From IMG/VR virus record IMGVR_UViG_3300011952_000012: DNA of 8,253 bases; one strand, written 5' to 3'. Below are positions 1,156-8,253 of the stretch, in pieces. Below the pieces are notes generated by a model, which saw nothing but the letters and a program-made list of their open reading frames with translations, ran no database searches and was not told where the DNA came from. The position numbers and the translations under genes were made by a program. The stretch's first letter is position 1. Every line of letters begins with the position of its first letter. Source of the stretch: a virus (lineage: Duplodnaviria > Heunggongvirae > Uroviricota > Caudoviricetes).

Positions 1156-1310
1156 NNNNNNNNNNNNNNNNNNNNNNNNNNNNNNNNNNNNNNNNNNNNN
1201 NNNNNNNNNNNNNNNNNNNNNNNNNNNNNNNNNNNNNNNNNNNNNNNNNNNNNNNNNNNNNNNNNNNNNNNNNNNNNNNNNNNNNNNNNNNNNNNNNNNN
1301 NNNNNNNNNN
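1156..1310. other. Run of 155 N (unresolved or masked sequence); hides the terminase large subunit C-terminus and the gpW N-terminus
   Basis: Directly visible as n characters in the sequence. Confidence 0.98.
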
Positions 1311-3207: not shown

Positions 3208-3661
3208 TCAGGGCTATTGCCAGCTCCTCTCGTAATACACTGCTCGCCTCCTGCGGCATTTCCGGCCACACCTTTTTTAACCGTGGTGGCCACGATTCGA
3301 CACGGGTACGTAATTCAACTGCGACGCGAGATACAGCTACGCTGATTAATTCAATTGGCGCGTAGCGTTTAGCAAGAATGCGGCGTTTCACGCGAGCCAT
3401 CAGGATTCGCTCCTGCCGTTCCTCATTTTTCAACCACTGCTCGCGATTTTTTTCGGGAGAATTGTCCCCCGCTTCCGGTTCGTCATTACTAGTTGTGTCG
3501 CGTCTATTGCTCCGGAGATAACGAATATAAAAATGGCGCCATGCGTCAAGTTCCCAATCGCCACGTCCTTGGGGGACTGGGGCTCCCGGAAGTTTTGCAA
3601 GATCGCGCAGACGACGATCAGATAGCAGTAAATGTGCTGCGACCTCAGCCTGACTTGCCAT
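3095..3661 (-). CDS. Terminase small subunit (Nu1-like DNA-packaging protein)
   Basis: 188-aa ORF immediately upstream of and overlapping the terminase large subunit. RBS GAGGA about 6 nt before the ATG at 3661. N-terminus (LSDRRLRDLAKLPGAPVPQGRGDWELDAWRHFYIRY) loosely resembles the lambda Nu1 N-terminal region (ASIRTIQNWQEQGMPVLRGGGKGNEVLYDSAAVIKWY); acidic C-terminus. Called mainly on synteny. Confidence 0.65.
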   Translation of the reverse strand: MASQAEVAAHLLLSDRRLRDLAKLPGAPVPQGRGDWELDAWRHFYIRYLRSNRRDTTSNDEPEAGDNSPEKNREQWLKNEERQERILMARVKRRILAKRYAPIELISVAVSRVAVELRTRVESWPPRLKKVWPEMPQEASSVLREELAIALNELADIRIDFSDYDVSDIERDLDRVESLARDDTDDGG

Positions 3662-4262: not shown

Positions 4263-4272
4263 NNNNNNNNNN
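4263..4272. other. Run of 10 N (placeholder gap) between convergent genes
   Basis: Directly visible. Confidence 0.98.
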
Positions 4273-4410: not shown

Positions 4411-4890
4411 CTACGCTTCTGAGATAGATTTCTCAGCATTCACCAATGGAAGTGATTGTGGAACATCCGTTTGACCTGCTGGCCAGCGATAGCCTGTTAC
4501 GCGGGAACGAGGAAAAGCTTTGATATTTACTTCATCTGCCTGGTTGCCCCCCAAAATCATTAAATCCCCGGCGGCATTTTTCCCGACAACAAAACCAACG
4601 TGGCCACCGCCAGACCGAGACAGAATAGCAATGCATCCATAGGCAGGTTCCTTCAGTTCATTACCCCAATCGAGATAAGAATTCGCAGACTCAAAACGCG
4701 TTGAGCGAATACCAACACGTTCCAGCATTGCTCCGGTGAAGGCGGCGCACCATGGTGTTTCGTCATCCTTAATACCGCCGCGTTTGATATCTTTCCAGTA
4801 CTGCACAATTTCTGCAGCATGTTGCTTCCCTTTCATTTCCCGGATGCCGAGATTTTTTCGTGCCTCAATTAGCCATTTAGGATCGGTCAT
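4411..4890 (-). CDS. Putative endolysin: Cys-His peptidase (CHAP / NlpC-P60-like, TIGR02594-like) peptidoglycan hydrolase
   Basis: 159-aa ORF with RBS GGAGA about 6 nt upstream. Candidate catalytic Cys in DETPWCAAFTG and His in GGGHVGFVVG. Sits directly after two small membrane proteins and before a lipoprotein. Start overlaps the upstream stop (TAATG). Confidence 0.6.
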   Translation of the reverse strand: MTDPKWLIEARKNLGIREMKGKQHAAEIVQYWKDIKRGGIKDDETPWCAAFTGAMLERVGIRSTRFESANSYLDWGNELKEPAYGCIAILSRSGGGHVGFVVGKNAAGDLMILGGNQADEVNIKAFPRSRVTGYRWPAGQTDVPQSLPLVNAEKSISEA

Positions 4891-5162
4891 TACCTGTCTC
4901 CTGTTATTTTTGAAATATTTCCTCGTGCCCGCCAGACAGCAATACAGATGGTGAGGTTGAGAAAGAACTCTGCGGGATCAACCTGCGTATATTTCCCGTA
5001 AAAAATTCGTAGGGCTATCCACGCAGCAGACAGAATCGCCAGGTAAGCAGTTAGTGAGATAAAAAAACGATAGCGGCCTGTTTTTTGAAAAAACATCAAC
5101 CGCAGTGCCAGCATCAGACAGATAATTGCATTGGCATTGATGAGGACAGAGTGCAGGGTCAT
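4890..5162 (-). CDS. Small integral membrane protein (holin or antiholin-like), second gene of the lysis cassette
   Basis: 90-aa ORF with about three hydrophobic segments (AIICLMLALRLMFF, FFISLTAYLAILSAAWIALRIF, FFLNLTICIAVW). RBS AAGGGGA about 8 nt upstream. Stop and start overlaps with both neighbours (TAATG) suggest translational coupling. Confidence 0.6.
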   Translation of the reverse strand: MTLHSVLINANAIICLMLALRLMFFQKTGRYRFFISLTAYLAILSAAWIALRIFYGKYTQVDPAEFFLNLTICIAVWRARGNISKITGDR

Positions 5163-6126: not shown

Positions 6127-6136
6127 NNNNNNNNNN
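6127..6136. other. Run of 10 N (placeholder gap) inside the Q-like region
   Basis: Directly visible. Confidence 0.98.
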
Positions 6137-6333: not shown

Positions 6334-6613
6334 CAGATAAACTCCTCATCGCGCCAGATAGCCAGTGTTCTGAAAACTCCTTCAGCGTGCATCAACAACA
6401 ATGAGTCGTGCTCGTAATCCGTTTTTGTACGCCCGTCGATGGCATCGTGACACGCACTGCAGGCGATAGCGCCCTGCATATCGTGAGGTTTGATGGCTGT
6501 GCCGCACGTTCCGGCGAGGCGGTAGTGAGCCAGTACACTGGTTTCCGGATTGTGATTACGCACACAGGACAAGCGCGACCGCATGCAGCTTTTCTCAGGT
6601 CGATTTTTTTCAT
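6333..6613 (-). CDS. YbcO-like protein (DUF1364 family), with an apparent frame break near the 5' end (possible pseudogene or sequence error)
   Basis: C-terminal 80 residues (...NPETSVLAHYRLAGTCGTAIKPHDMQGAIACSACHDAIDGRTKTDYEHDSLLLMHAEGVFRTLAIWRDEEFI) match E. coli DLP12 YbcO as I recall it (NPETSVLAHIRLTGLCGTGTKP...IACSACHDEID...). The YbcO-like N-terminus MKKIDLRKAACGRACPV is in a different frame, starting at the ATG 6613-6611 that overlaps the upstream stop (ATGA). Confidence 0.6.
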
Positions 6614-7206
6614 GATGTGTAATCCAGCAGCTGCGCGGCAGCATTTTCAGCGGCCTCCTGAGAGGCAAACGTGCGGAACAAAATATAATTCCACAGCACA
6701 TCTAAAACGGCTGAATACAGTTGACCGAACTCAAGATCGTCCATCGCAGCAAACGAGATTGAACGAGGTACGCGCATCAAACTGCCATCCGGCATCTGAT
6801 GAACGTCATAAAACCCAGCTTCCATAATCGCCCAGGCGCGAAACGCCTCGAACGACTTCACCGCACTGATATTCCCCGCGCGCTTTTCCGACTCATCGAG
6901 AAGATACTGATCAGCCAGCTCTGCCATGACATCACCGTGTCCACCGTAATACGCCAGTAACTTAACGTAGCCATGGACCAGTTCGCGCTCCGCAGGAGAA
7001 ATAGCCCCTCCGGACGGATGCCAGTAATCAAAGCCCAGGTTTAGAAGTGAGAAAAATTTACGATGAAACGCGGGATTACGCGCCTGTTTGAAATCTGCAT
7101 ACACAACAGCATCTGGTTTGACTCGTTCAGTCAACCAGCGTTGCGTGTCTGGTGTCGCGGGTATTAGCGAACCGCCGGATACCCTGATAAATGAATGCTG
7201 CGCCAT
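6610..7206 (-). CDS. Conserved phage protein of unknown function (nin-region gene, possibly DUF1367-like)
   Basis: 198-aa ORF with RBS TGGAG about 8 nt before the ATG at 7206 and a globular-looking translation. Stop overlaps the YbcO-like start. Family assignment is a guess from neighbourhood. Confidence 0.7.
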   Translation of the reverse strand: MAQHSFIRVSGGSLIPATPDTQRWLTERVKPDAVVYADFKQARNPAFHRKFFSLLNLGFDYWHPSGGAISPAERELVHGYVKLLAYYGGHGDVMAELADQYLLDESEKRAGNISAVKSFEAFRAWAIMEAGFYDVHQMPDGSLMRVPRSISFAAMDDLEFGQLYSAVLDVLWNYILFRTFASQEAAENAAAQLLDYTS

Positions 7207-7283
7207 GTTTAACTCCAGGTGGCGCGGCAGTGCTCAGAAAATGGTGCCGGGTGTTCAGACCAGCACCAGTATTATACCGCGTA

Positions 7284-7463
7284 TTACGCGTCAGGGGGTG
7301 TAATAGTATATCCAGCTGTTTCTGCCAACTCGAGAAACGCCAGCAGGCTGGCAATCCGCTCGTCGTCGCTGAGGACGCGTACAATCACTACGCGCCCCTC
7401 TTCTCGTTTGATTACAGCCCGGCACGTATCCGGTAATTTGCTGATCGCCTCGTGTGTGTTCAT
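7284..7463 (-). CDS. Small hypothetical protein (59 aa) under a LexA-box promoter; candidate SOS-induced regulator such as an antirepressor
   Basis: ATG at 7463 preceded by SD AGGGGGA about 5 nt upstream (the ORF-track start at 7484 lacks an SD). Translation MNTHEAISKLPDTCRAVIKREEGRVVIVRVLSDDERIASLLAFLELAETAGYTITPPDA. The promoter and LexA box lie 20-55 bp upstream. Confidence 0.55.
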   Translation of the reverse strand: MNTHEAISKLPDTCRAVIKREEGRVVIVRVLSDDERIASLLAFLELAETAGYTITPPDA

Positions 7464-7481
7464 ATTTCCCCCTGACAGAAA

Positions 7482-7501
7482 CACTGTATATATATACAGT
7501 A
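7482..7501. promoter_or_regulatory. LexA operator (SOS box), near-perfect consensus
   Basis: CACTGTATATATATACAGTA matches the E. coli LexA consensus TACTGTATATATATACAGTA at 19 of 20 positions (CTGT-N8-ACAG with an alternating AT spacer). Lies in the intergenic region just upstream of the 59-aa gene. Confidence 0.8.
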
Positions 7502-7519
7502 TTTTTTATCGTATGTCAT
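7491..7519 (-). promoter_or_regulatory. Sigma70-like promoter for the 59-aa gene, -10 embedded in the LexA box
   Basis: Minus strand ATGACA (7519-7514), 17-bp spacer, TATATA (7496-7491). The -10 lies inside the SOS box, the usual arrangement for LexA-repressed promoters. Predicted start about 20 nt upstream of the ATG. Confidence 0.45.
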
Positions 7520-7612
7520 AACATCAAATGCAATGGGGGAATAATGAGCAATTATATTCACCGCGTGAATTTGATTAAACGGTTTATTCCCGGAAAAAAC
7601 GGTTTATGGTTA

Positions 7613-8253
7613 TTATTTTTCATTTCCATAAACATGGGTTAACCATTTTCTAATAGTTGACTCCGCCGGAACGTCAGCATATTTTTTTACGAGAATTTCG
7701 TTAATACGTGCCACCGCCGCACTAACCCGTGCGTGGGGATTATTTGTGAAAAAAACCTCTGCAATCTGTAATGCCTCGTCTTTTAGCCTGTGCTGTGGCC
7801 TCCCTCCGCCCTTTGTTCCCAGATAACGCGCCAGTTGTTTGAACCGGTACGCCACGATTAGTGGCCGCATCATCATATTGAAAAAATCACGTGCATCGTC
7901 GTCCTCTCCTCGCGCTATCAACAGCGCAAAAAACAGGTACGGTATTGTATATACGTCAGGGGAAATCATTACGCGCCTGCACACAGTCGGCGCCAGTGCG
8001 ATCAGTGTGTCTGCCAGCGCGTCGCTCTCTCCTCCACGTTTGTAATACCGGTAGAGTGGTCCTAAGTCGAGTTCACTGGTATTGAATCCAGTCACAGCCT
8101 CACGAACCTCGTCTGCCAGCGCGTTGTAAATCGCCCCTGTACGTTTTGTGTAGAGTCTCCGGGTTGCCCCCCGGTTATCCAGCGCCCGCAGCATGTCAAG
8201 TCGGGTGACAAACGTTTCAGGCCAGTCCTCATAGAATGATCTCATATCCACCT
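7613..8253 (-). CDS. Hypothetical protein (at least 212 aa, probably truncated at the window edge)
   Basis: Long minus-strand ORF with a non-repetitive translation (...RSFYEDWPETFVTRLDMLRALDNRGATRRLYTKRTG...TIRKWLTHVYGNEK). The frame is open to the last base of the window; the ORF-track start is a GTG at 8251 with an ATG at 8245. No family recognised. Confidence 0.65.
   Translation of the reverse strand, partial: VDMRSFYEDWPETFVTRLDMLRALDNRGATRRLYTKRTGAIYNALADEVREAVTGFNTSELDLGPLYRYYKRGGESDALADTLIALAPTVCRRVMISPDVYTIPYLFFALLIARGEDDDARDFFNMMMRPLIVAYRFKQLARYLGTKGGGRPQHRLKDEALQIAEVFFTNNPHARVSAAVARINEILVKKYADVPAESTIRKWLTHVYGNEK

Follow-up and report, generated by a model that had tools for sequence, protein, structure and literature searches.

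A predicted LexA-controlled promoter of a probable small antirepressor gene in the nin region of an Escherichia coli temperate phage

In lambda-type prophage induction, the RecA filament stimulates the autocleavage of the CI repressor, which has a C-terminal Peptidase_S24 domain and an Ala-Gly cleavage site. Another arrangement is employed by Tum of coliphage 186 and AntC of N15, where the gene of an antirepressor is under LexA repression and its product binds a repressor that cannot be cleaved (PMC3121763). Tum is a protein of 146 aa, larger than the one considered below, and its sequence is a fusion that includes a DinI-like half (PMC3121763). The closest described systems are those of the Gifsy prophages. 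Lemire, Figueroa-Bossi and Bossi (2011, PMC3121763) described GfoA and GfhA of Gifsy-1 and Gifsy-3, LexA-controlled Salmonella antirepressors, and mapped the Gifsy antirepressor between dinI and the irsA homologue. GfoA inactivates GfoR/GfhR, GftA (STM1020.1n) of Gifsy-2 is a demonstrated antirepressor of GtgR, and FsoA of Fels-1 inactivates the Gifsy-2 repressor GtgR (PMC3121763). A further example is Rem of the cryptic prophage Qin, which inactivates DicA (Ragunathan and Vanderpool 2023, PMC10448788). In the same system YpjJ, YeeT and YkfH gave no derepression of dicBp (PMC10448788), so predicted members of this loose group need not act on a given repressor.

The stretch of DNA analysed here, referred to as the window (8,253 nt), covers the end of a temperate phage at which the nin/late-regulatory and packaging genes are located, and every recognisable gene in it lies on the minus strand. 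Read from right to left, the order is a 212-aa ORF to which no function is assigned (8251..7613; phrog_5215), an intergenic region with a LexA box (7612..7464), a gene for a 59-aa protein (orf59, 7284..7463), a DUF1367/NinB-like gene (7206..6610; PF07105, E 4e-77; phrog_319), a YbcO/DUF1364 gene and Q. Further leftward, beyond Q, two holin genes, an endolysin gene and the small and large terminase genes follow.

The box is very probably the operator of an SOS-controlled promoter of a small antirepressor gene, which would place this phage among those with Gifsy-type induction. As in Gifsy-1 and Gifsy-3, a homologous protein is encoded outside the immunity region, just upstream of a DUF1367/irsA homologue and of hairpins, a LexA box would overlap the predicted promoter, and the repressor is a short DicA/GtgR-like protein without a cleavage domain. 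Unlike in these prophages, dinI is missing, and the predicted SOS transcript would begin with orf59 and probably contain no other gene. At 59 aa, against about 77 aa for GfoA and GfhA, the protein is also shorter, and its start codon is ATG instead of a non-canonical one. E. coli is the host, and lambda-like head genes are combined with a contractile-tail gene set. The genomic contexts of Tum and AntC differ from that of orf59.

The predicted LexA operator and its promoter

The predicted LexA (SOS) operator is the 20-mer CACTGTATATATATACAGTA (7482..7501, no strand assigned), which holds the palindromic CTGT-N8-ACAG core of the box (7484-7499). It agrees with the LexA consensus TACTGTATATATATACAGTA in 19 of 20 positions, and the single mismatch is at the outermost base, which is weakly conserved. 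No other site in the window matches when up to three mismatches are allowed, and not one of 200 dinucleotide-preserving shuffles yielded any match at the same threshold. The core itself occurs once in the window, compared with 0.06 expected occurrences. The weight matrix used for scoring was derived from a set of 27 chromosomal SOS boxes of E. coli as known from published compilations, and the scores are approximate: at 28.2 bits, the box scores higher than all 27 (13.0-26.9 bits), and its heterology index is about 1.2. At its centre, the box consists of a plain TA repeat. The distance between the box and the ATG of orf59 is 18 nt, with no gene intervening.

Operators close to the consensus are reportedly tightly repressed within the SOS regulon and derepressed late. 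On this basis, the near-consensus operator predicts a tight repression of orf59, with derepression only after sustained damage. Such tight repression would be sensible for an irreversible decision.

A promoter-like element was read from the sequence on the minus strand (7491..7519), and it is kept in relatives. It consists of a -35 hexamer ATGACA (7519..7514), a 17-nt spacer and a -10 hexamer TATATA (7496..7491), the latter within the LexA box. Transcription is predicted to start near 7484, practically where the earlier note had placed it (near 7483), and with the hexamers so placed, the operator would cover this start as well as the -10 element. Downstream, on the same strand, the Shine-Dalgarno (SD) sequence GGGGGA of orf59 (7472..7467) is followed by its ATG (7463..7461).

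A strict sigma-70 scan of the window did not list this minus-strand promoter, because the scan demands T at position 6 of the -10 hexamer, which TATATA does not offer. In the (TA)n run, no register holds both A2 and T6 of a -10 hexamer. The support for the promoter comes from conservation rather than from a strong consensus score, as the -10 hexamer is imperfect. In the relatives L002 and L010, whose divergence across the shared region amounts to 9% and 6%, ATGACA-17-TATAAA is kept. The form typical of the lineage of the window is ATGACA-17-TATA(T/A)A, and most lineages, which are more distant, carry TTTGCA-17-TATA(T/A)A abutting the box.

The earlier note on this DNA had recognised that the 20-mer agrees with the LexA consensus in all but one of its 20 positions, which is borne out by the sequence, and had proposed a comparison with known SOS boxes, in which the site now ranks above all 27 of the set. 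Its reading of the site as an operator fused to the leftward promoter of the 59-aa gene finds support in the sequence and in the conservation of the locus, and the assignment to the nin region agrees with the location of the box upstream of Q.

Upstream of the promoter, the intergenic region contains a palindrome, ATTCAC-CGC-GTGAAT (7556-7570, no strand assigned), and, at a spacing of 20 nt, two direct repeats ATAAACCGTTT (7587..7577 and 7607..7597, both on the minus strand). These elements (7556..7607) are kept in the close lineage (L001, L002 and L008-L010). The palindrome ATTCAC-N3-GTGAAT was considered as an operator of the phage repressor and rejected: the repeats in the immunity region of the related E. 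coli prophage L001 are of a different type (TTACAA/TTGTAA), and the prophage has no second good copy of the palindrome.

Gene order, intergenic hairpins and the extent of the transcript

The protein of the DUF1367 gene, which starts 77 nt past the stop codon of orf59 (TAA, 7286..7284, minus strand), is 56% identical (E 1e-81) to STM1020 of Gifsy-2, the 'irsA homologue' that follows gftA. Given this identity, orf59 occupies the slot of gftA and gfoA. In Gifsy-2, the order is a terminator, a LexA box (TACTGTGTTTATATACAGTG), dinI, gftA, STM1020 and, further on, Q, and the succession of a LexA box, a small gene, two hairpins (HP1 and HP2) and a DUF1367 gene is common to both loci. The box of the window is not followed by dinI, unlike that of the Gifsy-type operon dinI - antirepressor - irsA; dinI was found in Gifsy-2, in Salmonella phage SEN34 and in mEp237. 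The missing dinI is a difference in the composition of the operon rather than in the presumed mechanism.

The first hairpin, HP1 (7235..7268, minus strand), has a 9-bp stem, in which 7268..7260 pairs with 7250..7242, and a conserved 9-nt loop UCUGAACAC (7259..7251); the stem is followed by UUUUCUG. Its features are those of a possible terminator or another RNA signal. The second hairpin, HP2 (7198..7227, minus strand; CCGCGCCA...UGGCGCAG), encloses the SD sequence and the start codon of the DUF1367 gene. Both structures are supported by comparison among loci. The HP1 loop CUGAACAC is almost invariant, and the inner five pairs of the stem covary with almost no unpaired cases: column 24-40 is CG in 17 cases and UA in 6, and column 25-39 is UA in 10, CG in 7 and UG in 5. 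This covariation exceeds that of all 500 shuffles and of all slid controls. In HP2, 95.8% of the cells are paired, and compensatory versions are present in Qin and in the locus L011. Both hairpins are also found in Gifsy-2, SEN34 and mEp237, and downstream of rem in Qin.

A terminator scan of the window did not list HP1, since it permits loops of at most 8 nt. Rfam gave nothing at the gathering score in the window, and around the locus it gave sub-threshold chance matches only, such as RsaE with 30.7 bits against a cut-off of 79. Each locus has a single copy of HP1, in every case shortly 5′ of the DUF1367 gene, and this leaves the notion of a nut-like site, which would come in two copies like nutL and nutR, unsupported. 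The candidate roles of HP1 are a terminator, a protein-binding site or, together with HP2, a part of a translational switch. That the two hairpins form an undescribed cis-regulatory RNA of Gifsy-, Qin- and Rac-type phages, which gates the extent of the SOS transcript, is a tentative idea and rather improbable.

The properties of the hairpins bear directly on which genes the LexA-controlled promoter serves. It could mainly drive the nin/Q cluster (DUF1367, YbcO and Q), with orf59 as a mere leader gene, in which case DNA damage would lead directly to late-gene antitermination and the immunity switch would be bypassed; such a role could coexist with that of an antirepressor. The genes are indeed co-oriented and closely spaced, dinI-gfoA-irsA has been described as one LexA-regulated operon by Lemire et al. 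(PMC3121763), and in most lineages the U-tract does not adjoin the HP1 stem, so that termination is perhaps weak. The lineage of the window, however, has the 9-bp hairpin followed by UUUUCU, 15 nt past the stop codon of orf59, and the start codon of the DUF1367 gene is enclosed by HP2; both structures argue for insulating the orf59 transcript from the DUF1367 gene in this lineage. Moreover, the Gifsy antirepressor alone sufficed for induction, and non-polar deletions of irsA had no effect (PMC3121763). Expression of Q without replication and early functions would also presumably be unproductive. The promoter is thus unlikely to serve mainly the nin/Q genes, and the SOS transcript that we propose is a short one of roughly 250 nt, for which HP1, ahead of the DUF1367 gene, is probably the point of termination or of a pause. 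If HP1 were read through under some condition, the cleavage of LexA would feed nin/Q directly and provide a second, more direct route from damage to lysis.

The orf59 protein and its probable target

The gene orf59 encodes a predicted small antirepressor of the GfoA/FsoA/Rem family. Its product matches phrog_340 (E 2e-17), which bears the PHROG label "unknown function", and the same PHROG is matched by FsoA, by gp55 of SEN34 and by Rem. The closest characterised homologue is FsoA of Fels-1, with 49% identity over 43 aa (BLASTP E 2e-10). FsoA was recognised as STM0898.2n by its N-terminus MNSQQMM and C-terminus EAGIRFEEISNVG, which agree with the primers for cloning and tagging in Table S1 of PMC3121763. 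The link to GfoA was made through the gfoA::3xFLAG primer, the translation of which ends in RRLGYRVTPPSDI, a C-terminus nearly identical to that of gp55 of SEN34. Both SEN34 and mEp237 were found by BLAST of the gfoA primer sequence against a phage collection; an exact 40-mer of the primer had no occurrence in IMG/VR. The orf59 protein is similar to this GfoA-type gp55 (E 2e-9), for which the family profile gives an hhalign probability of 97.4%.

BLASTP of orf59 against Rem gave no match, while the profile of the orf59 family aligns with Rem at an hhalign probability of 92.4% (E 5e-7), and Rem itself matches phrog_340 (E 4e-21). Like orf59, rem precedes a nin-like gene and Q, and hairpins resembling HP1 and HP2 lie downstream of it. 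Unlike orf59, it has no LexA box upstream (the best score is 3.0 bits), and its product is longer (83 aa) and has an N-terminal extension. GftA shows no detectable similarity to orf59: it belongs to phrog_4847, BLASTP gave no match, and when profiles of the two families were compared, the hhalign probability was 3.6%. Homology between orf59 and GftA is accordingly not claimed here, and their equivalence is one of position only. FsoA differs in its control, as its gene lies in the PL operon under the phage repressor rather than LexA, and the Fels-1 repressor is of the cleavable CI type.

Pfam holds no family for orf59, Rem, GftA or their relatives, even at E 10. The AlphaFold model of orf59, a confident one (pLDDT 89), has an alpha-beta-beta-alpha arrangement consisting of a helix, a beta-hairpin and a long helix, and a Foldseek search of the PDB with this model returned nothing below E 1. 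The protein is small, as are the members of its family (about 60-85 aa, next to the 59 aa of orf59), and its gene is placed outside the immunity region, flanked by accessory genes of the early region on one side and by DUF1367, YbcO and Q on the other.

The immunity region lies beyond the end of the window, and the repressor was read from a matching contig. The window is 99.4-100% identical to the IMG/VR contig L009/L090 and 93-99% identical to the E. coli prophage L001. Both L009 and L001 encode the same 130-aa repressor, about 13.6 kb (L009) and 14 kb (L001) upstream of orf59. It consists of an HTH_3 domain alone, has no match to Peptidase_S24, and is 33% identical to GtgR of Gifsy-2 (E 5e-23) and 31% identical to DicA, the target of Rem. 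Its neighbours are a YdaS-like gene in the position of Cro and a YdaT-like gene in the position of cII. This 130-aa protein is most likely the target of orf59, an assignment made from a contig whose identity to the window is 99.4-100%.

The survey of related loci described below points to the same pairing. A short repressor (ORF of 118-166 codons) is present in 59 loci, namely Qin, which has no LexA box, and 58 with a box, in which the repressor gene is always on the opposite strand and lies 3-9.5 kb upstream in the IMG/VR loci or 14 kb upstream in L001. Proteins of the S24 type occur in three surveyed loci, two of which are PL-operon cases without a LexA box, and just one LexA-box locus has a repressor of this type. 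The family genes of Klebsiella phage KPP5665-2 and of phiP27 share the arrangement of FsoA: they belong to PL operons, have no LexA box and are accompanied by S24-type repressors.

These relations also weigh on whether orf59 takes part in induction at all. It might instead encode another SOS effector, such as a DinI-like modulator of RecA or LexA, a division inhibitor or a toxin/antitoxin component. LexA-controlled prophage morons do exist, and dinI homologues occupy this place in Gifsy, SEN34 and mEp237; the absence of a Pfam domain and of a structural match in the PDB would also suit such a function. The protein is, however, a direct homologue of three others for which antirepressor activity has been demonstrated, bears no similarity to DinI, and belongs to a family that co-occurs with short non-cleavable repressors. 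An effector unrelated to induction is therefore very unlikely.

The antirepressor reading can be set out as a sequence of steps modelled on the homologous systems. In the lysogen, the host LexA would occupy the box, covering the -10 element and the start site, and orf59 would be silent. After DNA damage, the RecA-stimulated self-cleavage of LexA would free the orf59 promoter. The orf59 protein would then bind the short non-cleavable repressor of the DicA/GtgR type and displace it from its operators, and this removal would allow the early promoters to fire and the lytic programme to begin. The upstream signal, the RecA filament, is the same as in lambda-type induction, but in place of RecA-stimulated autocleavage of CI it would be transmitted by LexA and a second protein.

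The proposal of the earlier note that induction is wired to the host SOS regulon thus gains support from homology, although not in the form in which it was made. The box had been taken as a separate input, added to the autocleavage of a CI-type repressor, whereas the 130-aa repressor of the matching contig has no S24 peptidase domain. Such a repressor makes the LexA-controlled orf59 most likely the SOS induction route itself rather than an additional one, and the LexA-orf59 route is probably the main SOS input of the phage. The surprise that was implied at a LexA-repressed promoter in this part of the genome is likewise unsupported in view of the homology of orf59 to the Gifsy antirepressors, since this design was described for the Gifsy-1, -2 and -3 prophages in 2011 (PMC3121763).

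LexA boxes across related loci

To survey the association of the box with the gene family, IMG/VR was searched with a degenerate peptide motif of the orf59 family, a search that is blind to the upstream DNA and that retrieved 70 loci. The motif was taken from a subset of the alignment, as the full alignment offered no sufficiently conserved stretch. In this motif-retrieved set, a box of at least 15 bits lies just upstream of the family gene in 68 of the 69 evaluable loci. When all examined loci are considered, such a box is present in 75 of the 79 with upstream sequence, and most boxes score 21-28 bits. For comparison, the best score within 330-nt background windows of these loci is -0.5 bits at the median and 7.7 at the 95th percentile. 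The 80 loci with a family gene encode 51 distinct proteins, which form 14 clusters when grouped at 70% identity. Between the end of the box and the coding region there are usually 14-24 nt.

The conservation is confined to particular positions. All examined loci together provide 58 distinct promoter sequences, among which there is little or no variation in the CTGT and ACAG arms and free variation in the eight central bases, and the DNA around the box is often unalignable among the family loci. The maintenance of the arms with a varying centre and varying flanks is the pattern expected of a functional operator, and binding by LexA and inducibility by SOS would be anticipated from the homologous systems. 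A chance palindrome arising from the (TA)n run of an AT-rich intergenic region, with no LexA-related role, could be suspected from the TA-repeat centre of the box and from the frequency of TATA runs in AT-rich promoters, but this is effectively refuted by the comparative data, as the arms are kept where the centres are not (TA)n and the box is retained by protein homologues down to 35-45% identity, in addition to its absence from the shuffles.

The mechanism has been known since 2011, and the gene family and its genomic position are also already described. What is added here is the E. coli phage lineage of the window as a member, without dinI and probably with a monocistronic SOS transcript, and an association between LexA box and antirepressor that is far wider and more regular than the few studied cases. 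As a consequence, phrog_340 and the unannotated 59-aa "hypothetical protein" become readable as LexA-controlled antirepressors. These prophages are predicted to need the cleavage of LexA, not of the repressor, for their induction, and in a lexA(Ind-) host no induction would take place. Antirepressors of the orf59 type may also induce other prophages resident in the same host, a cross-induction that has been shown for Gifsy and Fels-1.

Among 5,426 complete E. coli genomes, 437 contain a related version of the locus, with identity down to 60-80%, and the same module is found in many IMG/VR prophages.

Conserved hairpins between the antirepressor and DUF1367 genes

The region separating the antirepressor gene from the DUF1367/NinB-like gene carries two conserved RNA hairpins, HP1 and HP2 (window 7198-7269, minus strand). 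Their counterparts are found in three related loci, at L006 11715-11775, L007 ~3560-3650 and L082 ~1545-1600, and the pair is present in one copy per phage locus. The stem of HP1 covaries, and its 9-nt loop, nCUGAACAC, is nearly invariant. HP2 is formed by the pairing of CUGCGCYA with AUGGCGCAG and encloses both the Shine-Dalgarno sequence and the start codon of the DUF1367 gene. Rfam holds no family for either hairpin. The pair may act as a terminator, as a protein-binding site or as a translational gate.

Sequences upstream of the SOS promoter

The -35 element is closely preceded by a perfect palindrome, ATTCAC-CGC-GTGAAT (window 7556-7570). It is also preceded by a direct repeat of 11 nt, ATAAACCGTTT, whose two copies (7577-7587 and 7597-7607) have a spacing of 20 nt. 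These elements are kept in the close lineage (L001, L002 and L008-L010), with the exception that the two repeats of L002 are inverted relative to each other; they bear no likeness to immunity-region operators. On its upstream side, the promoter is adjoined by a 212-aa ORF (window 7613-8251, minus strand) assigned to phrog_5215 (E 2e-102), in which no Pfam domain was found. This ORF accompanies the LexA-box antirepressor module in the E. coli prophage L001, in L002 and in L009, the IMG/VR contig nearly identical to the window.

The antirepressor family and exceptions to the rule

The L009 contig, which belongs to the same phage as the window, encodes two additional phrog_340 domains, both lacking a LexA box and located ~8 kb upstream of the 59-aa antirepressor gene. 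The first is a stand-alone protein of 73 aa (L009 1418-1639), and the second forms the C-terminus (45 residues) of an ORF6N-type 'anti-repressor' that is 278 aa long (phrog_4792; L009 1864-2700). Such an arrangement suggests that larger Ant proteins bind repressors through the small phrog_340 domain, and that early-expressed antirepressors, which could cross-induce other prophages, are made by this phage as well. The family carries the label 'unknown function' in PHROG. Antirepressors of three kinds that have been characterised by experiment, Rem, FsoA and a GfoA-type protein, belong to it, and its annotation could be upgraded.

Two related loci are exceptions to the rule that a family gene has a LexA box upstream and is paired with a short HTH-only repressor devoid of the S24 domain. 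In L017 (~4780-5090), a family gene is followed by the DUF1367 gene, and the upstream LexA box is absent (best score 1.4 bits). In L069 (2876-3268), the antirepressor gene does have a LexA box; an S24-type protein was found with it, but the locus yielded no short repressor. The same module is also present in vB_SmeS_BUCT708 (L005), a phage deposited as infecting Stenotrophomonas, where the LexA box CACTGTTTTTATATACAGTA (L005 2956-2975) is of the enterobacterial type. The LexA motif of Xanthomonadales differs from this type. Either the host assignment of the phage or the regulator reading its LexA box deserves a check.

Integrity of the window and the mosaic prophage L001

Of the four masked N-runs in the window (1156-1310, 2239-2248, 4263-4272 and 6127-6136), two break the large terminase gene, one the Q gene and one a stretch of short unassigned ORFs adjoining the endolysin gene. 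In L001, an ISVsa5 insertion divides the large terminase gene and the accessory region contains an IS3 element (L001 13046-14254 and 24007-25235), so this prophage copy is probably defective. This prophage is a mosaic (L001 1-11700): in contrast to a classical lambdoid siphovirus, it has lambda-like head and packaging genes (gpW, portal, S49 protease, decoration protein and FI) and a contractile-tail set (sheath and baseplate V/W/J/I), and its early region is Gifsy/Rac-like.
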